From positions 1 through 52,162 of IMG/VR virus record IMGVR_UViG_3300006734_000001: a stretch of DNA of 52,162 bases, one strand, 5' to 3'. The notes under the pieces were generated by a model. That model searched no databases and was not told where the DNA came from. It saw only the letters and a program-made list of their open reading frames with translations. The first letter of the stretch is position 1. Each line of letters opens with the position of its first letter. Origin of the DNA: a virus (lineage: Duplodnaviria; Caudoviricetes). Below, piece by piece: positions 9,165-52,162 of the stretch. A program made the translations under genes and the position numbers.

Positions 9165-9234
9165 TTTGTTTTGTGTTGTGTTGTGTGTTGTGTTGTTGCG
9201 CGCGGAGGGATGGAACCCCCGCGCATAGGGTGAA

Positions 9235-9927
9235 TCATGCTTTTGCGATTGCTTCAGCCTTCCGCTTACTGGCGCCGTGCGCACGGAAGGCGATGATCAC
9301 GGAACGGTTTGCACGCTGGCATAGTTGGCAAGTGGCGCACGTGATATCATCCCGTTGTTGGGCAGGGCAAACGATAGCTTTTCTCCCCGCCGGCGTTTCC
9401 ATGGTTGCGGGTGCGTCCTCGGGGACAACCGCGACAACCGGACCAGCCTGCAAATCAGCCAGTCTGTCAGCATGCGCCAAGGAATTCCCGGAAAGATTGA
9501 CGGTAAAGCCGTTTGCATTTGCAAATCGAACGGATGCCCGGTTGTGTGTTTCCATGCTGGAATCCCCTTCGCATGGTTTGTGAGTATACGTGAAGCCGCG
9601 CTTCCCGGCATTTGCACGCACCAAACGCAAAAGTGCCTTGGAGTCGATATCGTCACCCTTGCCGGGAAGATCACCGGCCTGATTGTGCCTCCACACTTGG
9701 CCAATGGGAAACGATTCAATCTGGCGGACAAGGGTAGACAAAAACCCTCCCCGATCGCCTCTCGTCACTTTTTGCCAGTGCATGCCAAGGGGTCCGCCTT
9801 TAGCATAGCACCCGCCAGCCTTTAGAGGGCAAGCGTCCGGACAAGTGGAAGCGGAGGAGGTTGTGACGGGGATGGGGCCGGTTTTTACGTTTGATGATTT
9901 TAGTGTGATGTGGATGCGTGTTTTCAT
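9235..9927 (-). CDS. Cys-rich phage Gp88-like protein (possible Fe-S/radical-SAM-like fold)
   Basis: SSNVKTGPIP, TCPDACPLKAGGCYA, RHNQAGD, FTYTH, CPAQ...CATCQLC. Confidence 0.7.
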   Translation of the reverse strand: MKTRIHITLKSSNVKTGPIPVTTSSASTCPDACPLKAGGCYAKGGPLGMHWQKVTRGDRGGFLSTLVRQIESFPIGQVWRHNQAGDLPGKGDDIDSKALLRLVRANAGKRGFTYTHKPCEGDSSMETHNRASVRFANANGFTVNLSGNSLAHADRLADLQAGPVVAVVPEDAPATMETPAGRKAIVCPAQQRDDITCATCQLCQRANRSVIIAFRAHGASKRKAEAIAKA

Positions 9928-9940
9928 CGCCAATCCGCGC

Positions 9941-9957
9941 AGCACATACCATGCCAA
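9941..9957 (-). promoter_or_regulatory. Sigma54 (-24/-12) promoter P1
   Basis: TTGGCATGGTATGTGCT, exact GG-N10-GC spacing. Confidence 0.7.
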
Positions 9958-10013
9958 CCGCGACCGGGGACCGGCACCCTCAAAAATCAACGGTTTGCAC
10001 AAGCAAAATGCGC

Positions 10014-10030
10014 AGCATCTTTCGTGCCAA
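10014..10030 (-). promoter_or_regulatory. Sigma54 (-24/-12) promoter P2
   Basis: TTGGCACGAAAGATGCT. Confidence 0.75.
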
Positions 10031-10177
10031 GTCATAAAGGCATGAAGCACAACACAAAAGCAAAAGGGAGTTTTTTGCCGATAGGCAATAAATACCGGGC
10101 AAATATTGCCGAAAAGGGGCATCTTTTGCCTGCGGGCAGCGTAAAGCAAACCAGGCGAGGCATTTGCGCAAATGCGC

Positions 10178-10194
10178 AGCATGATCCATGCCAA
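10178..10194 (-). promoter_or_regulatory. Sigma54 (-24/-12) promoter P3
   Basis: TTGGCATGGATCATGCT. Confidence 0.7.
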
Positions 10195-10528
10195 GCAAAC
10201 AAGGGGAACAGGCAAACACGGGGGAATAGAACAGGCACAAGGGACAATGGGAGGAACAGGGACATGGGGAACATCGAACAGGGGAGGGCATCGAACATGG
10301 GAACCAGAAGCCGGATGGCGACAATCGGGGCGATGGACTAGGGCGAATCAAACACCCATCCGGTGGTGACAAATGCCGGGGATGGACTAGGTGAGAGAGA
10401 ATGAGGCCAGACTAGACCAGCCCTGACCAACAGCGATGTTTCATAAAAAAATGAAACGATTGAACGAATCCCCGATCCAGCTTTTCAAATCCCCTCCCCC
10501 TGATGAGACTGATAACATCCGATAGTGT

Positions 10529-10569
10529 CATCTAATGAGTAGCGCCCACCGGCCTCGTCTCATTAGATG
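10529..10569. repeat. Perfect 11-bp inverted repeat in the large non-coding region
   Basis: CATCTAATGAG-N19-CTCATTAGATG. Confidence 0.8.
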
Positions 10570-10921
10570 CCGGCATCGTTCAAAGGAATCTATTTTTGGC
10601 CGGTCCGGCGATGGCACCACCCCACCACCCCATGATACCAGATTCAGCTTGTCTTACTACGAAATATACCTCCCATGAGAAAAACCCCTTCCTCGCACCC
10701 TATGGCTCTCTCCTCCCCGCTTTCCCCTATCCTCTCTAGGCTCCCTTCTTCTCCTATTTCCATATGGGGTCTATTTGCTCCTAGGATGCCCGTAGATCGC
10801 TTTTGGTGTGGTTTGGGGTGGGGTTGCCCTTCTTCTGGGGGGAAGGGGGGTTCTACTGGCCTTCTAGGCTTGTTATTGGCGGGGGTTGACTATCCCTGCT
10901 GGTTGGGGTAGTTGGTTGGGT

Positions 10922-11218
10922 ATGCCACCGTTTTCTAGGTTCAAGTTTTCCTTGCTCCATATTCTTGGGGGGTTTCCTGTGTTTTTGATGGGGTTGGCGG
11001 GGTGGGGGGTGTTTGCCGGGGTGTTCGGGGTGTTTGTTTTTTATTGGTCTAGGGAGAGGTGTCAGTATCAGTATTTATTGAAGGGGGATCGGTCTACTTC
11101 TACTGTGTGGTATAGGGGGTGGGTTCCATTGGAGTGGGGGTTTCCGGCGCAGCTTGATCTTTACGTGCCGGTTTTGTTTTACTTGCTTGTGGCTGGGGGT
11201 GTGGTGTTGTTTGGTTGA
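10922..11218 (+). CDS. Small membrane protein
   Basis: Hydrophobic segments flank YWSRERCQ...WVPLEW...LDLYVP. Confidence 0.6.
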   Translation: MPPFSRFKFSLLHILGGFPVFLMGLAGWGVFAGVFGVFVFYWSRERCQYQYLLKGDRSTSTVWYRGWVPLEWGFPAQLDLYVPVLFYLLVAGGVVLFG

Positions 11219-11421
11219 GGGTCGGCGAGCCATGCCATGATTTCTTCTGCTATGCGGTGGCATTTGAGGTGGGCGGCGTTGCGTTCTGATTTTGCTATGG
11301 CTAGTTGTTCGCGGGCCTCGTCTCTCTCGCGCTCAAGTTTGCGGGCGTGTTCGATCATTGCAATGAAGTCCAATGGGTCATCCGTCATTGGAAGAGCATC
11401 CGTCTCTGGTGTATCACTCAT
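11179..11421 (-). CDS. Phage MSDTPxTD-family protein
   Basis: MSDTPETDA...ARKLERERDEAR. Confidence 0.75.
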   Translation of the reverse strand: MSDTPETDALPMTDDPLDFIAMIEHARKLERERDEAREQLAIAKSERNAAHLKCHRIAEEIMAWLADPQPNNTTPPATSK

Positions 11422-11461
11422 TATCGTTGACGATAGTTGTTGAAAACTCTGCTTGGTTTTT

Positions 11462-11677
11462 TCAACGGAAGCCGAAGAGGGACTTCAAGGCATCCAGATT
11501 ACCCATCGAGTCGGGGTCCAAGTAATCTCTTTTCTTGGATTCCCCCTCGCGGTAGGCGATATCCCATGTGGTATCGAACATCTTTCGGAGTCCCCTTGTG
11601 GTTAGGGTTATTTCTCCTTCTTTGGCGAATTGGGGGTTTTTTTGGACATAAAACTCCCAAAGTGACGACTTATTCAT
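11462..11677 (-). CDS. Hypothetical protein
   Basis: In a tightly packed minus-strand operon. Confidence 0.7.
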   Translation of the reverse strand: MNKSSLWEFYVQKNPQFAKEGEITLTTRGLRKMFDTTWDIAYREGESKKRDYLDPDSMGNLDALKSLFGFR

Positions 11678-11930
11678 CCTCGGTCATCTCCGCGAGTTTC
11701 GCGTTGATATCATCCCGCATGAGTGAGTGGACCTGTTCCTTGGCTCCGTGGTAGGCCGCGATGAGTCCATGGATTGTTGACAGGCTGCATTGGTCATCCT
11801 CGGAGGTATATTCCTCCAAGACATCTCCGATGAGTAGAGCCTGCATCTGGAGGCTGATAATTTTCTTCGACTTGTATTCCAACCCCTCATTGAGGCGTTC
11901 GATCTCTTCTGCCATTTCTTCTTTTTTCAT
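11670..11930 (-). CDS. Hypothetical protein
   Basis: Operon packing. Confidence 0.7.
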   Translation of the reverse strand: MKKEEMAEEIERLNEGLEYKSKKIISLQMQALLIGDVLEEYTSEDDQCSLSTIHGLIAAYHGAKEQVHSLMRDDINAKLAEMTEDE

Positions 11931-11998
11931 ATTGTGTTGGTATACCCTTTCGGGCTTTATTCATGTATGCGCGATGAGTTTATACCTTATCGGTGGCA

Positions 11999-12196
11999 TC
12001 AAGCCTCGACTTCCTCATCATCCTCATCCTCATCATCTTGGTCAACCGAGTTTGCGACCAGTTCATGGATTTTGACATGAAGTGTCCCGATCATGGCGGC
12101 GAGGGACATGTCGAACTCGTCGCTATACCGTTGGAGCAAGCGGTCGAGATCGTCATCGAAGCAACCAATCTGGGTTCTCTCATCCATGAAGGTCAT
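11999..12196 (-). CDS. Small acidic hypothetical protein
   Basis: Operon packing; D/E tail. Confidence 0.65.
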   Translation of the reverse strand: MTFMDERTQIGCFDDDLDRLLQRYSDEFDMSLAAMIGTLHVKIHELVANSVDQDDEDEDDEEVEA

Positions 12197-12924: not shown

Positions 12925-13087
12925 GTTTGTTCCAGTTTTTGAAGCCTCCGAAGTCTCGGGGCTGGGTTACGACATCGTGGATTTCGCAGACATCACACTT
13001 GCCAAAATGCCAAGTGGAGACTGCCCTTTGGCCGCTTCCGTGCTTCAGGCCGCATTCTTTGCATGTCCAAGTAGGATATGGTTTCAT
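12878..13087 (-). CDS. Zinc-ribbon protein
   Basis: CKECG...STWHFGKCDVC...TQPRDFG. Confidence 0.7.
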   Translation of the reverse strand: MKPYPTWTCKECGLKHGSGQRAVSTWHFGKCDVCEIHDVVTQPRDFGGFKNWNKHGNKRILPGLRDQLA

Positions 13088-13635
13088 TCGCAGGAATTTA
13101 TCGTTGACGATAATTTGAGCATGGGAAGTTTGTCCAATGGCTTGATGAAAGAATCATCAATGAAAGTAATCCGGTTGGTGGGTTGGATGGTCAGCCTACC
13201 ATTGTCTAGCTGGATAAAGTAAAACGTTTTATCTTGCTCTGGGCAGTTGCTCCACCCCTCCTCCAAGTGAGTCACCTCAAAGAGGTAGATACCGGAGTGG
13301 ATGGTATCGCCGATCTTGGCGTTCATTCCGATCCCCTTGAGGATGGGGTTCTCAATGGCTGTGAAGTGGTAGGAGTAGCAGTCCCAGAGTTGAGCTTGTG
13401 GCGCGGCCCAATCCCTCCCGCAATTGGTATCAAATGATACCGCGTGTGGTGGAATATTGCGGTAGAGCATACCGCCCTCGCGGAAGATCACATTCAGCCC
13501 CCACATCCTGCCGGGGATCGAGGTAATCCCGACCCACATGGCTTCCTGCCACCCACAGTCTTCTTCGTGGGTAAAGCGTGAGTCCACCTGTATGTAAAGG
13601 TGGTATGGTATTGCGCCTATCTTGGAGTAGATCAT
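13084..13635 (-). CDS. Conserved phage hypothetical protein
   Basis: LYRNIPPHA, QLWDCYS, LDNGRLTIQPTNR. Confidence 0.75.
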   Translation of the reverse strand: MIYSKIGAIPYHLYIQVDSRFTHEEDCGWQEAMWVGITSIPGRMWGLNVIFREGGMLYRNIPPHAVSFDTNCGRDWAAPQAQLWDCYSYHFTAIENPILKGIGMNAKIGDTIHSGIYLFEVTHLEEGWSNCPEQDKTFYFIQLDNGRLTIQPTNRITFIDDSFIKPLDKLPMLKLSSTINSCE

Positions 13636-13874
13636 TTCATTGATTTGGCACCCCGGCACTTCCACTTCTTGCGCGAAAGATTATTAGGGGAGTTTGGATC
13701 ATTCTTCCAGTTGCCCTTGATTTTCAATGACCTAGCGCAATATGCGTCACCCTTGGCCGTGCCCGGACGAATACGATCACCACCATCTTTAGCCTTGCCA
13801 GCTTGCCCGTATTTGACCGTTTTAGTCCTACCAGTCTTGGGGTTTTTTACCACCTTCTTGAATCGCTTTTCCAT
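13632..13874 (-). CDS. Small basic protein (DUF6321-like)
   Basis: KTVKYGQAG...AYCARS...NLSRKKWKC. Confidence 0.7.
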   Translation of the reverse strand: MEKRFKKVVKNPKTGRTKTVKYGQAGKAKDGGDRIRPGTAKGDAYCARSLKIKGNWKNDPNSPNNLSRKKWKCRGAKSMK

Positions 13875-16796: not shown

Positions 16797-16815
16797 TTTA
16801 TCGGTAACGATAATC

Positions 16816-23180: not shown

Positions 23181-23210
23181 TTCAACTATCGTCAACGATA
23201 ATAACAAACC

Positions 23211-29469: not shown

Positions 29470-29529
29470 TATCGGTAACGATAACCCGCGATGGGGTCCG
29501 ACCCCCCGCCGCAAACCAAATCCAAAAAT

Positions 29530-41121: not shown

Positions 41122-41136
41122 CTATCGTCAACGATA

Positions 41137-42593: not shown

Positions 42594-43681
42594 ACTCATT
42601 TATCGAAGACCGCTATAGCAAGAGAAGCAGGCCAATTTTCCATAGCTCTGGGTTTGCCATTGCTGCTGGTGTGGTGGGAGTAGCTGCTGCGGGAGCGGGC
42701 GCGGCTGTCAGTATGAGTGCGGCGGATAGGGCGGCAAAATCACAAGCAGCAGCGGGTCGAGCTTATGAAAGAAGGCTAAAAGAATCTGGATCAAAATACG
42801 AGAGATCGGTTAGAAGGTTCAATCGCCAGCAAAAGGAGTTGAGGAAGCAGGTTGAAGCGATTGATCCTACAATCAACATCCCTCAATATGATTTGCGGGG
42901 TGCCACGTTGGAGGGCATCGAGACGGCCAACCAGATTACCGCAAATACTCTTCAGCAATTGGAGAAAGTCGCCCCCGGCAGCACCGAAGCTAGGCAGCAG
43001 GTTGGTAGTATCATTGGAAGCTATCTGAGGGGAGAGGTTCCGCAAGATGTGCAGGAGCAGACCATGCGGATGATTGCCGAGCGAGGTGGGGCAGGATTTA
43101 ATATTGCTACGGCAGGCAGGGGGATGGGACCGCAAGCGCCTCAAGCCGATCTCGCCAGAAGCCTTGGTCTTACTTCCTTGCAGTTGCAGCAGACAGGCAT
43201 CAACGCAGCGCAGAGTTGGCAGCAGATGGCCGGTCAATTCATCCAGTCTCCCACCCAAATGATGGCACTCGGCCTGCAAGGTCGCGGCCAAGATATAACT
43301 GTCGCTCAAGCCAACATCGCCAATAGGTTTAGGCAGCTTGGCATGATTGGCGATATCAATGCCCAGCAACTTGGCGCTATGCGGGAATTGTATGGTATGG
43401 AGGCTGGGCAAGCGCAGACTGGCTACCAAGTCGGGCAGCAGAATATCGCATCGAATCTCGCAGCCCAGCAGGCTATTGGGCAAGGTATCCAGTCCATTGG
43501 CAGCGCAGCATCCGGGGCGTTGATGGGTGTTGGAGGCGCGTATGGGCAGTTGGCTGCCGCGCAAGCTGCTGCCCCTGTTCCGGGTCAATTAACCACAGGA
43601 TTTGAGGGTCAAAAATATATGCCAGCAACAACCTCAACTGGATCGGAATACTACACGCTCGCTCCAAAAGTATACCAATAA
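42587..43681 (+). CDS. Putative DNA ejection/internal virion protein
   Basis: Ala/Gly/Gln-rich with a hydrophobic N-terminal segment. Confidence 0.6.
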   Translation: MLDSFIEDRYSKRSRPIFHSSGFAIAAGVVGVAAAGAGAAVSMSAADRAAKSQAAAGRAYERRLKESGSKYERSVRRFNRQQKELRKQVEAIDPTINIPQYDLRGATLEGIETANQITANTLQQLEKVAPGSTEARQQVGSIIGSYLRGEVPQDVQEQTMRMIAERGGAGFNIATAGRGMGPQAPQADLARSLGLTSLQLQQTGINAAQSWQQMAGQFIQSPTQMMALGLQGRGQDITVAQANIANRFRQLGMIGDINAQQLGAMRELYGMEAGQAQTGYQVGQQNIASNLAAQQAIGQGIQSIGSAASGALMGVGGAYGQLAAAQAAAPVPGQLTTGFEGQKYMPATTSTGSEYYTLAPKVYQ

Positions 43682-45368: not shown

Positions 45369-48300
45369 ATGGAATTCAAATACATTGGCTCGCTGGATGA
45401 AGAGGAGCCAGCAACAACGCAGCAACTAGAACCGCAAGTCAGCCAGCAACCAACCAAAACTGATGGCGGAACGCGGTTCAAATACATTGGCGATGTTGAG
45501 GCAATCGGTCAAGAGTTCTTCAGCTTTGAAGATGCAATATCAGCGATAGGCACGATACCCGAGGCTTTGGCGGTTGGCATTCCTGCTGCATTTCAAAAAC
45601 TTGTAACCGGACTTGAGATTCCAGAAGAGTCTGAAGCTATCGAGAGAGAGATTGAATTCCAACAGAGGATGCAGAAAGAGCAAGCGGATCGCGTGGCATC
45701 AGGCAAGGCCACAGTATTTGGCTCTGCTGTTCGCGCAGGAGCGCCAAGTTACTCTGGGAGCTTTATGACAATGGGCGCAGCAATCCCTGCGGGGATTGGT
45801 GGAGCTATTGCTGGCGGTCCTGCGGCGAAAATCACAGGACCAGCGGCGGCAATGGCGGCATCTGGCACGGTAGCCTATCGCATGGCTGGCTCCGATCTGA
45901 TGTATCGGGCCTACAAGCAGCTTGAAAATAAGAAGGGTTCCCCCCTTACCGATGAAGAGAAAGCAGAGTTTTACAAGACCATTCTTCCTATCGCACAGAA
46001 CGCCGCCCTATGGGAAGCTGGGCCGGAAGCGGTCAGTAATGCCATCTCTCTTGGCGTAGGCAGGTTTGTATTCGGATTCGGTAAGGGCACTGCAAAGCAA
46101 GTTGTCAATGAATCCATCGAGGCAGCAAACAAGACCTTAACCCGCAAGATTGGGGAGAAGAGCGCCGCAATTGCTGGAGGATTGGGGGCGGAAATTGCCA
46201 GCGAAGGCGTTACCGCTATGGGTCAGTTCCCGCAGGAGAAAAAGGTTCAGCAATTCGTGGAGACAGGAACAACCGAAGGCGCAGAGACTCAATACCCCGG
46301 CGGATATTTACAGGCAGTCAAGGATGTCGCGCCTGCCACCACGGCAGTATATTTTGGAATGGGTGCAGTAGGCGGGGGGGCTAAGCTAGCTACCCTCCCA
46401 TTCCAGAGGCAGAAGTCGCCAGAGCAGATCGAGGAAGACAACATCAATCTTGAGGCTGAAAGGGTTTCGAGAGAGCTTTCCGTTGGCGAGACAGACGAAG
46501 AGACGAAGGGTATCGTCGCCGCGCTCAACACCGCTAGGGATAACCTCGCTGCGAAGAAAGAAGTCTACACCGCGCTTGAGCCTACCGATCCCGCCGCCCA
46601 ATCCCTTGGTATGGAGATTCGCCAGATGGAGCGGGATGTGGCGATGCTGGATGCGGAACTACGCAAGAGGACTGGCGAACCCCTCGCCCAAGCAGAGGCA
46701 CAGCAAGCAGAGATTGCCCGTGGGTTGGAGGAGCCAGTATCGGCAACGATAACGCAAGAGCAAAGGGTGACAGATCTTCGTGCCGTATCGGAGAATACCG
46801 CTACACCGGAGCAGATCGCGTCTCTTTCGCAGGCCGGGTTGGTCGATGTGATCAAAGGCAAGCCCGTCGTTAACGAGGACGGAGAGGCTATCCTCGCGCA
46901 AGCACAGGCTCCCCTGCCGCGACTTACGCCGGAAGAGAGAGTTGCGGAGATCGAGGGTGAAGCTCCGGTTGCGCCCGCTCCAGCAGAGGGCGTAACAGAA
47001 ACCCCAGAGCAAAGATATTCAAGACTACTTGCGGAAGCTGAACCGTTCTCAAGGCCGGGAACAAACTACAACCGCAATATCGCATCATCCTACGAGCGAT
47101 TGAAGGCTGGAGTTGAATCTGGTTCAACGCTAAACGAACCTCGCGCAGAAGAACTTGAGATTAGACTTCGCAAGGTTCAGCCCGCCCCCGCATCTACTAT
47201 CAGAGAAGAACCGCAAGTTTCTCCAATGATAGGCGCGGAGCCAACTCAACCTGCGCCAGCGGAAGGAGTAACACCAGCACCGGAAACCGCCGCAGAGCCG
47301 GATATCCGCAGAGCGGCAGTAGAAGAAGAAGTCCAACCCGTCCCCGCAGAGGAGCAATACACACCCAAGCAAGCGCAGAGTGCGCTGAAGAAGCTCTTCG
47401 GTCGCAAAATCCCGGACCGCATCAAGATCATCAACGACCCGGAGAATAAGAGAAAAGCTGGATACTTTGTAGATAACGGAGAAATTGAACTAAACCTCGC
47501 GTATCTCAAAAAGACCGACAACTTGGAGGACATCATCACCCACGAAATCGGGCACTTCATCTACCCCGACCCCGAGTTTCAAAAGGCATTCCAATCATTC
47601 TGGGAAGCAATTCCGGATGATAAAAAGGAAAACATCACCAATTACGTCAAGTCTGCCTACAGCAAAGATACTGGAGAAATCCAGATCGAGGAAGCGCAGG
47701 TCATTGCCTTTGAGAAGATCATTGCCCGCAGCAAGCGCGGCGTGAATTGGTGGACGCAACTCAAGGACATCATCAATCGCATCATCAATCGCATCTTTGG
47801 AACTGATTTCGAGGTATCCGACCACGGCGCTATGGCGGTCTTGGCTGCTGGAATCAAGCGATACGGTAGCGGGGAGAGGATCATCCGCGAGACGAAGAAG
47901 CTACCAGAGGGTAGCGATATCCGTATGGCTGGAGTCCAATCGCAGGACGCCCGCTTCGCAGAGCTAGAGGCTAGGGCTAGAGAGGGAGACAAGGAAGCTG
48001 AAGCGGAAGCGCAGAGGATGGTGGATGAGGCGGCGAAGGCGGCTGGGTATGGGATGTATGGTGTTCACAGAACAACCGAGGCTGGAATTACTGAATTCAA
48101 GAAAGAGGGCGTTGGTCGCGGCGTATCATTTTCTGGAGACGCGGGTTTCTATTTTGCTTTTTCTGAAAACGACCAAGCCTCGCAAGTTTTTGGCAATAGA
48201 GTTTACAGGGCTTACCTCAAGGTAAACAACCCCGCTCCTGTATCGGTTGTATTTAAAAATGTAATTAGAACAGTTGTTCCGGAATCCGCAAGAGAAGCTG

Positions 48301-51300
48301 TAGGTAAATTCTTTTCACGACTTCGATTTGAAAGGGCGCGGCAAGGCAACATAATCAATGCGGCAAAGACTGCATTCCAAGAAGCTACCCAGCGCAGAAT
48401 AAATCCAGAGAGAATGTTTAGGGCTGATGCCGAAAGATTGATGGATTTGGGATACGATGGGATTGTCTGGAGCGGAGATGAAAATATAACCGCGCCCCCT
48501 CAAATTGTCGTCTTTACTCCAAACCAAATCAAATCCGCAGACCCATTCACATACGACGATGCAGGCAATCTAATCCCCCTATCCCAGCGATTCCAACCAA
48601 CAGAAAGAGACATCCGCAGAATGGCGGTGGAGCCACGGAGAGAGCAAGAGGCTGGAATCAAGAATATCGGTAAGATTATTGATACGCCGGTGGGCATCAA
48701 CCGCCGCACCGAGGAAGTGATCCGCAGGGATGTGTTCAATTCTGATGAAGTAAACCCAGAGCAAACCGCAAAGGCATACGATCTGATTGATCGGTTGAGC
48801 CGTGATCCAAAAGAGGCGAACAACTACGCCGACGAGATCAATGAACTCACTAGGAAAGAACTCTCTGCTGAAGAGAACAGAGAGGTTGCACAGACAATTG
48901 GCGCGGTGAAGCTCGGAAATGAACTCTTCAAATATGCGGTGAATCTCGCCGCCAAGGGAGATATCCGCATGCTCCAGCTTCTTACTGAACGGTTCAATGA
49001 TTTGGCTACAGGCGCAGGCGGAATCGGGCAGGATGCTCGCAACCTGCAAGCCCGCCAGAACCTAGCAAGCTGGGTGAAGCGAGCGGCGGAAAGCCAGAAG
49101 ACAGGCATTGTTAACGCAGTAGCCATCCAAATCTATGGACCCGGCGCAACACAAGAACAGATCGACACCATCCGCGATGCGGTGAATGCGGTGAACAAGA
49201 CGAAGGTGGAGGATGCCGACGCCATCTACACCGACCTAGAGGAGACGGGTAGCAGGACCGGAGTCGAGATTCGCAAGGCAGTAGAGAAGGCGATGGACAA
49301 AGCTGACGCCTCTAGCAAAGACCCGTGGGTGATGGCTCTGGAGATTGTAAAGGCTATCGAGGGATTCCAGAAGTTCACCTATGAAGGGCTGACCATATCT
49401 GTCCCTCAGAACATCAAGAACCTTGTTAGCAAGAACCTCGCCAACTACCGCAAGAAGATGAAGACCAAGGGCGCGGACGGGTTGGAGAAGACATTCTGGA
49501 AAACGATGTCCGACCAAGAGGACAAGATGGGGCCGCTTGGTGAGGTGGACATGGCGGTGGGCAGGAACTTGGCTGGCATCGTGAAGGATACGCTGATCAA
49601 GCTGGGGCTGAAGGGTGAGCCTCCGGACACCAAGATGACTTTGATCGAGCAGGTTGCCAACATCCTCTCCAACAACGAACTATCGACAGACCGCATGGCA
49701 GAGGCGGATAAGCGAATCTCGGAAGAGATAGCGGCACGCAGGGGGAAAGAGGTTTCTGATGCGGAAGATGCCAATGCTAGCCCGGAGGTCATAGACGCTA
49801 TCGAAGCCAAGTGGGAGGGCATCCAACAAGCATGGGATGAATCCATGTCCCGTCAGATGGATATCCCGATCAGCGATGCCACGCTCCGCCGACTCATTAG
49901 CAATGAACTGAAGGAAGATAATACAACCATCTCGCAATTCGTGAAAGAGGTTGGTGACGATATTGCCATCTCCAACGCAAGGAAGGGAACCATCATTAAC
50001 AAGATCATCTCCAAGCTCAATGGTTTGAATGAGGACGGGTCTACCAAGCGCGACTACACCAAGCTAGAAGAGTTTCTTTCCAGTCAATTTGACCAAATGG
50101 TTTCCAACCAGAAGCTCAAGAACCGGATGCGTTCTGCGGTCAAGAAGGTGGCGAAGGAGGCTGATCCCAACAAGCAGGCGGAACGCCAAATCGAGCGCCT
50201 TGCCGAACTCCAAAGCGATGTCCAGAGGTGGCCGCAAAAGAGGGAAGACAAGGTTCGTGATATTGTTTCCCAAGATTTACGAAACAAGCTGGACTTGGGG
50301 TTGAGGGTCGCAGACAAAATCAAGCGCAACTGGAAGCCTGTGCTTGTAGACAGGTTGGTCAATGCTGGTGTCGATCAAAGCACGGCTGGCATTCTCGCCG
50401 ACATTGTGTGGAGGCAGCATGAGATCAACTATCTCAACAGGAAGATGGCGCAGGTCGAGCGTGCCGTGACCAGAGGCAGTTTGGCCCCGATCATTGATGC
50501 GATCAAGAACACTCCGCTCGCCCAGCAACAAGACCCAGCGTGGAAGAGGAAGGTCGCCTACGATTATCTGATCAACGCAGGGCTGGATGCAAAGACTGCC
50601 GGGAGACTGGCAGACCTCATGGACACCACGCTCCAGAAGGTTCTCGCCGCCGCGCAGGCCAAGGCATTCGAGGACACGCTCAAAGGCAAGCTAGGTGATC
50701 AACGCTCCCGCCGTGGGATGGAGAAGTTCTTGAGGGCAATCCGAACCGGGGCAATCGACCCGACCAAGAATATAACAAGCGAGATCGCCGCCGCCAATGG
50801 GTGGACAGGGTTCACAAGCGAGCAATACGCCCGTCTCTCCGAACTGGATTCTATCGTCAACGATAAAAAGAAGACCGATCTGGAACTTGCTGCCGCCTAC
50901 AAGGAGATTCAAGACATCCTAGCGGACGCAAAGCTACAACCAAGGGTGAGGGAAGCATTGGCTGCATACTACACGGCGAACGCCTTGTCCGGCATCCCAA
51001 CCGCAACGGTGAACATCTTCTCCCCAATTGGATTCTCCCTCCGCAATCTAATGACGGACACGATCAAGAATCTGGCAACCAACCCCGCCGCATTGCCAAC
51101 GACCTTCGACACCTTCGTGTCTAGTTGGAAGACCTACTTCTCGGAGGTGGCATTCAGCTTCAAGAACAATGTTCAGCGTCGAGGCGTGGTGGAATACCTT
51201 TCCAACGACGATATTCTCCTTCGCCTCTACAACAAGGGCAAGAAGCAATGGCAGCAAGGTCAGCGGGCGGAGGGAATGAAGAATATGATTGTCGGCATGA

Positions 51301-52162
51301 TGGAGTATGTCGGCAGGATGCTAAAGGCTTTGGACGAGGGAGCGGTGTCCGTGCTGGAGCAGCAGGGGCTGACCCGCTATGCCATGGATGCCATGCAAAA
51401 GGCGGGAATCCCGGCAAAGGATGCTAGGGCCGCAGCCAATGCTGTCCTCTCCCAAAAGCAGGCATTCATTGAGGAGATGGTGGCGAAGGGAGTGAACAAG
51501 ACGCAAGCGAGAGCAATGTCCGACGATGTGTTCCGCTCTGCGTGGGTTGAGGCGCTGACCAACTTTGAGATCCCAAGCCAGCAGGTTCTAAACGCCTCGC
51601 TCAACGACGCTTTGGCATCCATCGGCAGGATCAACAATACCTTTGATGCGTTGAAGAAGGAGGATCGCAACATCCGCGACCTTGGCTTCGCCTCCGCGCC
51701 TCCGATTGGGTTGCTGGAAAGGCTTGGAGAATCATTGAACAGCGACAAAGCCACCGAGACACAGAAGGTCTTTTACCGAATGGTTTATGGTTTCGCCATC
51801 GTTCCTGCTCGCGTCTTCCGTGAGGCGGCATGGTTTTCGCCATACGGGTTTGTGAGGTTTGCTGTGAACAGCTTCTCCAAGAGGGGCGGGGGAGCGGGCC
51901 GATACGCCCAGTCCCTTGGAACGGATGCCCAGTTCCGCCAGAGGATGACTGAAACAATAGCTGGAACCGCTGTGCTTGGCGCAATGCTTGCACTATCCAA
52001 GGGATCGGACGAAGACCCGTTCGATGAACTTCCGTTTAAGATCGTAGTCACGGGCAACGGTCCCGAGCGCAGGCTCGACCCGCAGTTCTACGATTCATGG
52101 AACAAGAAATACAAAAGGAATGCTCTGCATGTATTTTTTGGAAAAACCAAGTTTGCGATCAA
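45369..52162 (+). CDS. Giant polyvalent/ejection protein (~2,524 aa, ends at 904) with HExxH metallopeptidase-like and ADP-ribosyltransferase-like domains
   Basis: ATG 45369 (MEFKYIG); track lists no ORF in this frame, consistent with no stop before the window end; THEIGH at ~47541; AQRMVDEAAKAAGY..VHRT..GFYF..YLKVNNP..GYDGI..VVFTPNQIKSADP at ~48010-48600. Confidence 0.85.
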   Translation, partial: MEFKYIGSLDEEEPATTQQLEPQVSQQPTKTDGGTRFKYIGDVEAIGQEFFSFEDAISAIGTIPEALAVGIPAAFQKLVTGLEIPEESEAIEREIEFQQRMQKEQADRVASGKATVFGSAVRAGAPSYSGSFMTMGAAIPAGIGGAIAGGPAAKITGPAAAMAASGTVAYRMAGSDLMYRAYKQLENKKGSPLTDEEKAEFYKTILPIAQNAALWEAGPEAVSNAISLGVGRFVFGFGKGTAKQVVNESIEAANKTLTRKIGEKSAAIAGGLGAEIASEGVTAMGQFPQEKKVQQFVETGTTEGAETQYPGGYLQAVKDVAPATTAVYFGMGAVGGGAKLATLPFQRQKSPEQIEEDNINLEAERVSRELSVGETDEETKGIVAALNTARDNLAAKKEVYTALEPTDPAAQSLGMEIRQMERDVAMLDAELRKRTGEPLAQAEAQQAEIARGLEEPVSATITQEQRVTDLRAVSENTATPEQIASLSQAGLVDVIKGKPVVNEDGEAILAQAQAPLPRLTPEERVAEIEGEAPVAPAPAEGVTETPEQRYSRLLAEAEPFSRPGTNYNRNIASSYERLKAGVESGSTLNEPRAEELEIRLRKVQPAPASTIREEPQVSPMIGAEPTQPAPAEGVTPAPETAAEPDIRRAAVEEEVQPVPAEEQYTPKQAQSALKKLFGRKIPDRIKIINDPENKRKAGYFVDNGEIELNLAYLKKTDNLEDIITHEIGHFIYPDPEFQKAFQSFWEAIPDDKKENITNYVKSAYSKDTGEIQIEEAQVIAFEKIIARSKRGVNWWTQLKDIINRIINRIFGTDFEVSDHGAMAVLAAGIKRYGSGERIIRETKKLPEGSDIRMAGVQSQDARFAELEARAREGDKEAEAEAQRMVDEAAKAAGYGMYGVHRTTEAGITEFKKEGVGRGVSFSGDAGFYFAFSENDQASQVFGNRVYRAYLKVNNPAPVSVVFKNVIRTVVPESAREAVGKFFSRLRFERARQGNIINAAKTAFQEATQRRINPERMFRADAERLMDLGYDGIVWSGDENITAPPQIVVFTPNQIKSADPFTYDDAGNLIPLSQRFQPTERDIRRMAVEPRREQEAGIKNIGKIIDTPVGINRRTEEVIRRDVFNSDEVNPEQTAKAYDLIDRLSRDPKEANNYADEINELTRKELSAEENREVAQTIGAVKLGNELFKYAVNLAAKGDIRMLQLLTERFNDLATGAGGIGQDARNLQARQNLASWVKRAAESQKTGIVNAVAIQIYGPGATQEQIDTIRDAVNAVNKTKVEDADAIYTDLEETGSRTGVEIRKAVEKAMDKADASSKDPWVMALEIVKAIEGFQKFTYEGLTISVPQNIKNLVSKNLANYRKKMKTKGADGLEKTFWKTMSDQEDKMGPLGEVDMAVGRNLAGIVKDTLIKLGLKGEPPDTKMTLIEQVANILSNNELSTDRMAEADKRISEEIAARRGKEVSDAEDANASPEVIDAIEAKWEGIQQAWDESMSRQMDIPISDATLRRLISNELKEDNTTISQFVKEVGDDIAISNARKGTIINKIISKLNGLNEDGSTKRDYTKLEEFLSSQFDQMVSNQKLKNRMRSAVKKVAKEADPNKQAERQIERLAELQSDVQRWPQKREDKVRDIVSQDLRNKLDLGLRVADKIKRNWKPVLVDRLVNAGVDQSTAGILADIVWRQHEINYLNRKMAQVERAVTRGSLAPIIDAIKNTPLAQQQDPAWKRKVAYDYLINAGLDAKTAGRLADLMDTTLQKVLAAAQAKAFEDTLKGKLGDQRSRRGMEKFLRAIRTGAIDPTKNITSEIAAANGWTGFTSEQYARLSELDSIVNDKKKTDLELAAAYKEIQDILADAKLQPRVREALAAYYTANALSGIPTATVNIFSPIGFSLRNLMTDTIKNLATNPAALPTTFDTFVSSWKTYFSEVAFSFKNNVQRRGVVEYLSNDDILLRLYNKGKKQWQQGQRAEGMKNMIVGMMEYVGRMLKALDEGAVSVLEQQGLTRYAMDAMQKAGIPAKDARAAANAVLSQKQAFIEEMVAKGVNKTQARAMSDDVFRSAWVEALTNFEIPSQQVLNASLNDALASIGRINNTFDALKKEDRNIRDLGFASAPPIGLLERLGESLNSDKATETQKVFYRMVYGFAIVPARVFREAAWFSPYGFVRFAVNSFSKRGGGAGRYAQSLGTDAQFRQRMTETIAGTAVLGAMLALSKGSDEDPFDELPFKIVVTGNGPERRLDPQFYDSWNKKYKRNALHVFFGKTKFAI
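52040..52162. repeat. Terminal direct repeat (copy 2)
   Basis: Identical to 1-123. Confidence 0.97.

Follow-up and report, generated by a model that had tools for sequence, protein, structure and literature searches.

Here we describe a putative enhancer-dependent transcription module in a tailed phage (Duplodnaviria; Caudoviricetes). The stretch analysed, hereafter termed the window, is the complete IMG/VR virus record IMGVR_UViG_3300006734_000001 of 52,162 bp, which carries direct terminal repeats. In front of a minus-strand gene encoding a DUF7227 protein, three tandem sites of the sigma-54 (RpoN) -24/-12 type are clustered within positions 9937 to 10194, and an array of GGCA-N5-TGCC palindromes lies among them. 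We favor the reading, to which we assign a probability of roughly 0.55, that the sites are real sigma-54 promoters on which a host enhancer-binding protein would act through the palindromes. That GGCA-N5-TGCC palindromes accompany phage sigma-54 sites is a new observation. Sequence comparison alone thereby yields a testable proposal for both the activator, a host flagellar regulator, and the group to which the host may belong.

The three sites are 21-mers on the minus strand, each with an exact GG-N10-GC spacing. The most upstream one, P3 (TTGGCATGGATCATGCTGCGC), runs from 10194 to 10174, with the GG at 10192-10191 and the GC at 10180-10179; P2 (TTGGCACGAAAGATGCTGCGC) follows 164 nt downstream, from 10030 to 10010, with C(-12) at 10015; and P1 (TTGGCATGGTATGTGCTGCGC), separated from P2 by a spacing of 73 nt, runs from 9957 to 9937, with C(-12) at 9942. 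Transcription is predicted to start near 10167, 10003 and 9930 from P3, P2 and P1, respectively. An earlier sequence-only reading of this DNA had quoted the same 21-mers, assigned them to the RpoN consensus and predicted the same starts; the 21-mers are present exactly, and the starts were recovered from the C(-12) positions. The extended RpoN consensus is YTGGCACG-N4-TTGCW, and each site matches 11–12 of the 12 core positions of TGGCACG-N4-TTGCW, the departure being an A or G that replaces the first T of TTGC. The same -12 variant occurs in experimentally supported sites of Salmonella hycA, zraP and fdhF (table 3 of PMC3844500), and GG and TGC are named in a passage of that paper as the essential elements of a sigma-54 promoter. 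The ATG of the DUF7227 gene at 9927 is located at about +4 of P1, the predicted start preceding it by 3 nt. This near-leaderless arrangement had been noticed in the sequence-only reading, and we found the same geometry in relatives of the phage and in flagellar promoters of candidate hosts.

The extended pattern TTGGCAYG-N5-TGCTGCGC has exactly three exact matches in the window, all on the minus strand. Allowing up to three mismatches gave six matches against a shuffle mean of 1.08, and none of 100 shuffles reached six. By comparison, the loose core TGGCAY-N6-TGCW with at most one mismatch was found 15 times across the whole window against 14.2 expected, which is no enrichment and speaks against a genome-wide signal; the only two further exact loose cores, at 43263 and 45575, lie within plus-strand open reading frames (ORFs). 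As the loose core is not enriched genome-wide, the signal consists in the cluster itself. A scan of positions 9000-11600 for sigma-70-like promoters predicted none.

Relatives of the phage, to which the sequence-only reading had pointed as a source of evidence, bear out the sites in their sequence blocks, their spacing and their strand. Homology of the DUF7227 protein alone was used to gather 58 IMG/VR loci, 56 of which are distinct and together comprise 325,862 nt. Over these 56 loci, a core regular expression matched 32 times on the gene strand versus 5 times on the opposite strand; the reversed control gave one match on each, and shuffles averaged 2.2 sites and never exceeded 9. One or more same-strand sites are present in 19 of the 56 loci; in another relative, L150, no site was found within 3 kb. 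Positions that the expression leaves free are likewise constrained among the 34 unique sites: a T precedes TGG in 24, a purine follows TGGCAY in all 34, and a T follows TGC in 33. Whole-record scans of five relatives yielded 15 matches, nearly all of them clustered, against one in the control. The spacings within the three-site clusters, 164/73 nt in the window, are 164/74 in G003 and G004, 175/74 in L093 and 164/63 in L059. In an alignment of five homologous regions (A1), with a column identity of 56% on average, neither TTGGCA nor TGCT changes at any of the three sites and the spacers vary, and an orthologue of P3 with a different spacer is present in L013, L028, L059 and L093. The next ATG tends to follow C(-12) at one of two distances, 44-54 nt or 15-18 nt, and in G409 the sites repeat ahead of successive genes along one operon. 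In IMG/VR at large, the 21-mer extended pattern occurs in 91 stretches, mostly as single matches and many of them in one near-identical contig family of about 29 kb; by our own arithmetic this count is about what chance would give for 16 specified bases, and the relatives among these stretches are only L013, L059, L028 and L029. From the match to consensus and from this pattern of conservation, we consider it probable that the three sites are real sigma-54 promoters.

A further conserved sigma-54-type site, without a counterpart in the window, was observed in four relatives, at 60466 (minus strand) in G003, 42201 (plus strand) in G004, 62960 (minus strand) in G006 and 11855 (plus strand) in G409. 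It is located 5-7 kb from the cluster and aimed toward it; a small gene ends just 5' of the site, and a ATGAACACACAA start follows some 25 nt further on.

Between P3 and P2, positions 10076..10138 hold the palindrome array, which we regard as a candidate enhancer, or upstream activating sequence. It consists of two palindromes of the GGCA-N5-TGCC class, GGCAAATATTGCC at 10098-10110 and GGCATCTTTTGCC at 10118-10130, and of two TGCC-N4-GGCA units at 10076-10087 and 10127-10138. The palindrome centres are about -79 to -130 from the predicted P2 start, -150 to -200 from that of P1 and +35 to +90 from that of P3; the usual distance of an enhancer is given as about 70-150 bp (in a passage of PMC3844500). 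The half-sites are conserved in the five-region alignment. In relatives, GGCAA-N3-TTGCC, often followed by TAG, is found 1-110 nt upstream of their sites, as in L092, L096, L098, L100, L108 and G409. The 56 loci and the window together contain 41 GGCA-N5-TGCC palindromes, of which 17 stand upstream of a site at a distance of 200 nt or less; such zones account for 1.8% of the bases (binomial p 2.7e-19, a value overstated because the loci are related). Control palindromes fell into them in 0/4, 1/9, 1/11 and 0/2 cases. The sequence-only reading had suggested that infection is gated by, or hijacks, a host RpoN activator, and the palindromes provide this suggestion with a concrete candidate enhancer. 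A perfect 16-bp palindrome, GCATTTGCGCAAATGC, occupies 10160..10175 and is centred on the predicted P3 start; its counterpart in relatives is not palindromic.

The phage genome encodes no RpoN, and searches against protein families and the PDB detected neither an RNA polymerase nor a sigma factor. A six-frame search of the phage for the Sigma54_activat domain (PF00158) at E<=1 found none, no real phage ORF contains a GAFTGA motif, and the only classical Walker A is that of the terminase. In agreement with the sequence-only reading, which had seen no AAA+ enhancer-binding protein in the genome, these results led us to reject a phage-encoded activator. Since the phage has neither sigma-54 nor an AAA+ activator, an enhancer-binding protein of the host would have to open the complexes.

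A counterpart of the phage arrangement was found in bacteria of the phylum Verrucomicrobiota. Of 401 Verrucomicrobiota genomes searched, 15 contain the composite GGCAANNNTTGCC-N40-70-TGGCAYN6TGC; the reversed control was found in none, and our rough arithmetic gives an expectation of about 0.6. In 9 of the 15 it stands directly upstream of flagellar genes, namely flgF of a flgF-G-A-H-I operon in seven (L192, L193, L195, L196, L197, L198 and L187), a flagellin gene in one (L194) and flhB in one (L190). Two composites precede a gene whose conserved 95-aa product falls into no known family (L185 and L186, in G110 and G392), and four show no clear link (L184, L188, L189 and L191). The bacterial flgF ATG comes 12-18 nt after the TGC and is hence near-leaderless like that of P1. 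No composite match was found in E. coli K-12. Within this one phylum, therefore, the palindrome class and its position at flagellar genes are those seen at the phage sites. As a separate observation, the 95-aa protein can be considered a possible addition to the flagellar regulon.

The only genome in GTDB with a close DUF7227 relative (84% identity, on a 7-kb contig) is G001, a metagenome-assembled genome labelled uncultured Chthoniobacter (Verrucomicrobiota), which encodes rpoN. Its flgF is preceded by GGCAAAATCTGCC, 42 nt, TGGCACGGTCGATGCT and a further 13 nt up to the ATG, an arrangement outside the strict composite pattern. In the complete genome G183, a candidate activator of REC-AAA+-HTH_8 architecture and a PAS kinase are encoded about 6 kb from fliD and flagellin, and at least eight strong matches to enhancer-binding proteins were found. 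In IMG/VR, the composite occurs in 91 stretches against about 27 expected, again by rough arithmetic of our own, and six of these hold mirror-image divergent pairs around one palindrome. A 2025 in-silico survey describes sigma-54 control of motility in Opitutia (Verrucomicrobiota), Planctomycetia and Thermodesulfobacteriota (PMC12316311).

From these comparisons we infer RpoN binding, the transcription starts, the activator and the host phylum, and propose the following model. Host RNA polymerase with sigma-54 would read the three sites, which together with the adjacent GGCA-N5-TGCC array would form an enhancer-dependent control module. The flagellar activator of the host, an NtrC-type response regulator, would bind the palindromes (GGCAATATTTGCC). 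From there it would work on P2 and P1 from upstream, and possibly on P3 from downstream. The module would drive a mosaic block of the DUF7227 gene and three small genes that ends at a hairpin near 7940, and expression of this block would be tied to cells in which the flagellar programme is on. It is the form and distance of the palindromes, being those at Verrucomicrobiota flagellar promoters, that point to a flagellar activator; we hold this identity of the enhancer-binding protein at somewhat below even odds. The placement of the host in Verrucomicrobiota is offered tentatively, with slightly less confidence still.

Several observations weigh against this model. The closest whole-genome relative, G002, has one site only and no palindrome, and G407 and G408 carry no site or one; moreover, the homologous loci are not independent, so p-values overstate the support. 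A palindrome stands within 200 nt in 10 of 21 site-bearing sequences and is absent in the other 11, the palindromes of the window lie downstream of P3, and the extra convergent site of the four relatives has none. On the bacterial side, six of the 15 composites are not beside recognisable flagellar genes, and the composite search covered the Verrucomicrobiota phylum only, so that the palindrome may lack specificity for the phylum or for flagellar genes. The link to the metagenome-assembled genome is a single 7-kb contig that holds no host genes and no sigma-54 site within 3 kb. A search of the 401 Verrucomicrobiota genomes with the portal-like protein gave two weak matches, none in G001, a result that is uninformative. 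Finally, across eight relatives the presence of the sites goes with that of four phage proteins, so that a palindrome binder encoded by the phage is possible.

Some of these points would also suit real sigma-54 promoters that answer to another host activator, of the stress, nitrogen or RNA-repair type, the flagellar likeness being either coincidental or due to a palindrome class common to several activators. Bacteria possess many enhancer-binding proteins, as the count in G183 illustrates, about half of the phage sites have no palindrome, six of the 15 bacterial composites are non-flagellar, and enhancers are stated to share no common consensus (in a passage of PMC3844500). We nevertheless regard this explanation as unlikely, given that 9 of 15 bacterial composites are flagellar versus none in the control, and that flgF promoters, including that of G001, agree with the phage module in the shape of the palindrome, in how far away it lies (about -75 to -120) and in their near-leaderless start. 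A role as decoy, which we judge less probable again, would have the sites and palindromes sequester sigma-54 holoenzyme together with an activator, flagellar or other, during phage replication, shutting down flagellar or stress genes of the host; in a variant, stable closed complexes would obstruct transcription that reads through from the replication operon. The cluster does lie just downstream of this long minus-strand operon, it packs three strong sites and three to four palindromes into 260 nt, and sigma-54 holoenzyme forms stable closed complexes without an activator (abstract of PMC4591121). However, the sites are oriented with the downstream genes (32 versus 5), keep fixed distances to start codons and, in G409, repeat before successive genes of an operon, all of which is promoter-like behaviour that a decoy does not require, although the two roles are compatible.

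The lowest probability, somewhat under that of a decoy, goes to a factor encoded by the phage that would read the RpoN-like 21-mers, be it a polymerase or sigma factor of a novel kind or a regulator that binds DNA; the palindromes would then be operators for a repressor or activator of the phage. A large number of the phage proteins belong to no known family, and conservation goes past the classical core, to the TGCGC tail and to a TG-Y pattern that follows TGCT. Furthermore, four proteins occur in the records of all six site-bearing relatives and are absent from the two relatives without clusters: a 317-aa protein encoded at 3526-4479 (plus strand), whose match to an LmbU-type regulator is weak (E 2.9e-8, short of the cut-off), the product of 13084-13665, an HNH protein and the giant virion protein. 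Yet this co-occurrence comes from only eight genomes that are not independent, and the asymmetric RpoN consensus is matched at constrained and unconstrained positions alike. No polymerase or sigma was detected in the phage, and the same composite stands at flagellar genes on bacterial chromosomes, without involvement of any phage factor.

The preferred reading, promoters under a host enhancer-binding protein, has a precedent in part. Pseudomonas aeruginosa phage YuA depends on host sigma-54, as stated in passages of PMC5053324 and of a preprint (bioRxiv 10.1101/2023.10.13.562163), which tempers the statement of the sequence-only reading that such promoters are unusual for early transcription in phages. 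Like the phage of the window, YuA is a tailed phage that has no RpoN of its own, carries several sigma-54-type promoters in its genome and uses, or would use, the sigma-54 of its host to transcribe some of its genes. The two phages are unrelated, as no cultured-phage match was found for the DNA or for the portal or terminase of the window phage. Moreover, the sites of the window front a small accessory block, whereas those of YuA are said to serve the particle and lysis region. The dependence of YuA is experimental, reportedly established by Ceyssens et al. 2008 (J Bacteriol 190:1429) with a promoter trap and an rpoN mutant, whereas the sites described here are known from sequence. The passages on YuA cited above name no enhancer or activator, whereas the window has a conserved palindrome array that points to one. 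In the literature searched, YuA is the only phage that we found with demonstrated sigma-54 dependence, and no phage promoter tied to a flagellar activator was found in a search that did not cover subscription journals. A 2026 preprint proposes a phage AAA+ protein that acts on sigma-54 polymerase.

The sequence-only reading had also likened the cluster to the A1-A3 promoters of T7. Both are groups of three co-oriented promoters for host polymerase, within about 260 nt, before small genes, and to this extent the likeness stands as one of position. It does not extend to promoter class: T7 A1-A3 are sigma-70 promoters at a defined genome end and need no activator, whereas the sites of the window are of sigma-54 type, have no sigma-70-like site nearby in 9000-11600, and belong to a circular or terminal-repeat assembly. 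Closer parallels are the sigma-54 systems of flagellar genes, such as FlbD with ftr in Caulobacter, FleQ/FleR and FlrA/FlrC, described in a passage of PMC3930126. Flagellar promoters share with the phage module the -24/-12 element and dyads about 75-120 nt away, which in the flagellar systems bind the activator and can act from upstream or downstream, and the flgF, flagellin and flhB promoters of Verrucomicrobiota share in addition the palindrome form, the distance and the near-leaderless start. They differ in that the phage element would drive non-flagellar genes and has three tandem promoters instead of one.

Sigma-54 promoters are silent without an ATP-driven activator, and a phage relying on them therefore cedes control of some of its genes to host signalling. 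If the model is correct, the phage would read out the flagellar programme of its host or, by titration, shut it off, which would suit a phage that uses the flagellum for entry or favours motile cells. A phage integrated in this way into the flagellar sigma-54 hierarchy would be without precedent, and would show that a phage can sense host physiology, namely motility. The same arrangement would provide a clue, obtained from sequence alone, to the host (Verrucomicrobiota) and to the binding site of a bacterial activator, and hence a means of predicting the hosts of uncultured phages and the sites that regulators bind in them.

The cluster is set apart from the replication operon by a nearly gene-free stretch of about 1 kb (10195..11178) on the 5' side of P3, which abounds in short C/T- or G-rich direct repeats and contains no convincing gene. 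This operon runs on the minus strand from 17505 to 11179 and encodes an initiator, DnaB and RusA; the plus strand of the window carries the structural, lysis and tail genes. Downstream of the operon and behind the promoters, a 2-kb block comprises the DUF7227 gene and the small genes. The first gene behind P1, at 9235..9927 on the minus strand, encodes the DUF7227 protein of 230 aa (PF23872, E 2.4e-92), in which Cys29, Cys33 and Cys40 occupy invariant columns of the alignment. Its predicted fold is a partial TIM barrel (predicted local distance difference test score, pLDDT, 94.8) that weakly resembles radical S-adenosylmethionine (radical-SAM) enzymes. Such enzymes ranked at the top of the VIA wide structure search with Z scores of 5-6 (best 6.1), which is too weak for naming a function. 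Foldseek at E<=0.001 and a sequence search of the PDB returned no match, and a literature search on DUF7227 found no paper. DUF7227 is present in 185 cultured-phage records across many hosts, and this spread makes it uninformative on the host.

The same transcription unit continues on the minus strand with three small genes, at 8778-9164, 8401-8721 and 7975-8322, which have CA-rich leaders and no Shine-Dalgarno sequence. A 38-nt hairpin element, TGATTCACCCTATGCGCGGGGGTCCGATCCCTCCGCGC, is repeated on this strand at 9200-9237, 8366-8403 and 7940-7977, each time 3' of the stop codon of a gene. Two of the copies are followed by a (CAA/CACAA)n leader up to the next ATG. Only the copy at 7940-7977 is followed by a T-rich tail, which makes this the likely end of the unit. 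The 'early' timing proposed for the module in the sequence-only reading is putative.

In relatives, other genes are found behind the same three promoters. On related metagenome contigs from two sequencing runs (X2 and X3), homology to the window is lost exactly at 9941, inside the -12 block of P1; the contigs retain the promoter cluster and then carry a downstream gene of the L059 type. The break at 9941 and the exchange of downstream genes indicate that the module is a portable cassette at a mosaic junction. For this lineage of uncultured aquatic or sediment phages, it is conceivable, though we would rather doubt it, that the whole flagellar control unit of the host, with palindromes, promoter and near-leaderless start, was copied, that its promoter was tripled, and that it is used as such a cassette before exchangeable accessory genes.

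No match to the window or the region resulted from tRNA and Rfam scans. Among cultured phages, neither the DNA of 9000-12000 nor the portal-like protein or terminase had a match, and Roseobacter phage CRP-345, considered as a cultured relative, was dismissed since it has just one isolated core match. Parts of the window are contained as contigs in 15 sequencing runs (shares <=0.20), labelled as aquatic, marine and sediment metagenomes, in which starts are unreadable. Short contigs on several parts of the window were found in one oligo-dT RNA library, where DNA carry-over is possible.

Apart from the promoter cluster, three features of the genome were observed. On the plus strand, 45369-52160 and 2-904 are taken up by a giant ORF that exceeds 2,264 aa and is open at the record end; it includes an ART-PolyVal (ADP-ribosyltransferase) domain at residues 900-1058, and its product is probably an ejected polyvalent virion protein. 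The idea that this ORF hides an RNA polymerase was discarded, as PDB and family searches gave only the ART-PolyVal domain. Among the 47 ORF starts of the window, almost all genes have no Shine-Dalgarno sequence and show A/C-rich leaders instead, which in our view would fit a host with weak Shine-Dalgarno use. Finally, the 14-bp palindrome TATCG-N4-CGATA, mostly in the form TATCGTCAACGATA, is present in 23 copies in the window, for example at 11422-11435, 13099-13112, 16799-16812, 23187-23200, 29470-29483 and 41123-41136, against none for the reversed control and an expectation of 0.36 at up to two mismatches. None of the copies lies in the sigma-54 cluster, and about half stand immediately 5' of start codons, on either strand. 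With 24 copies in the closest relative G002 and none or one in seven other relatives, this palindrome probably serves a phage regulator specific to the lineage as its operator or promoter element.

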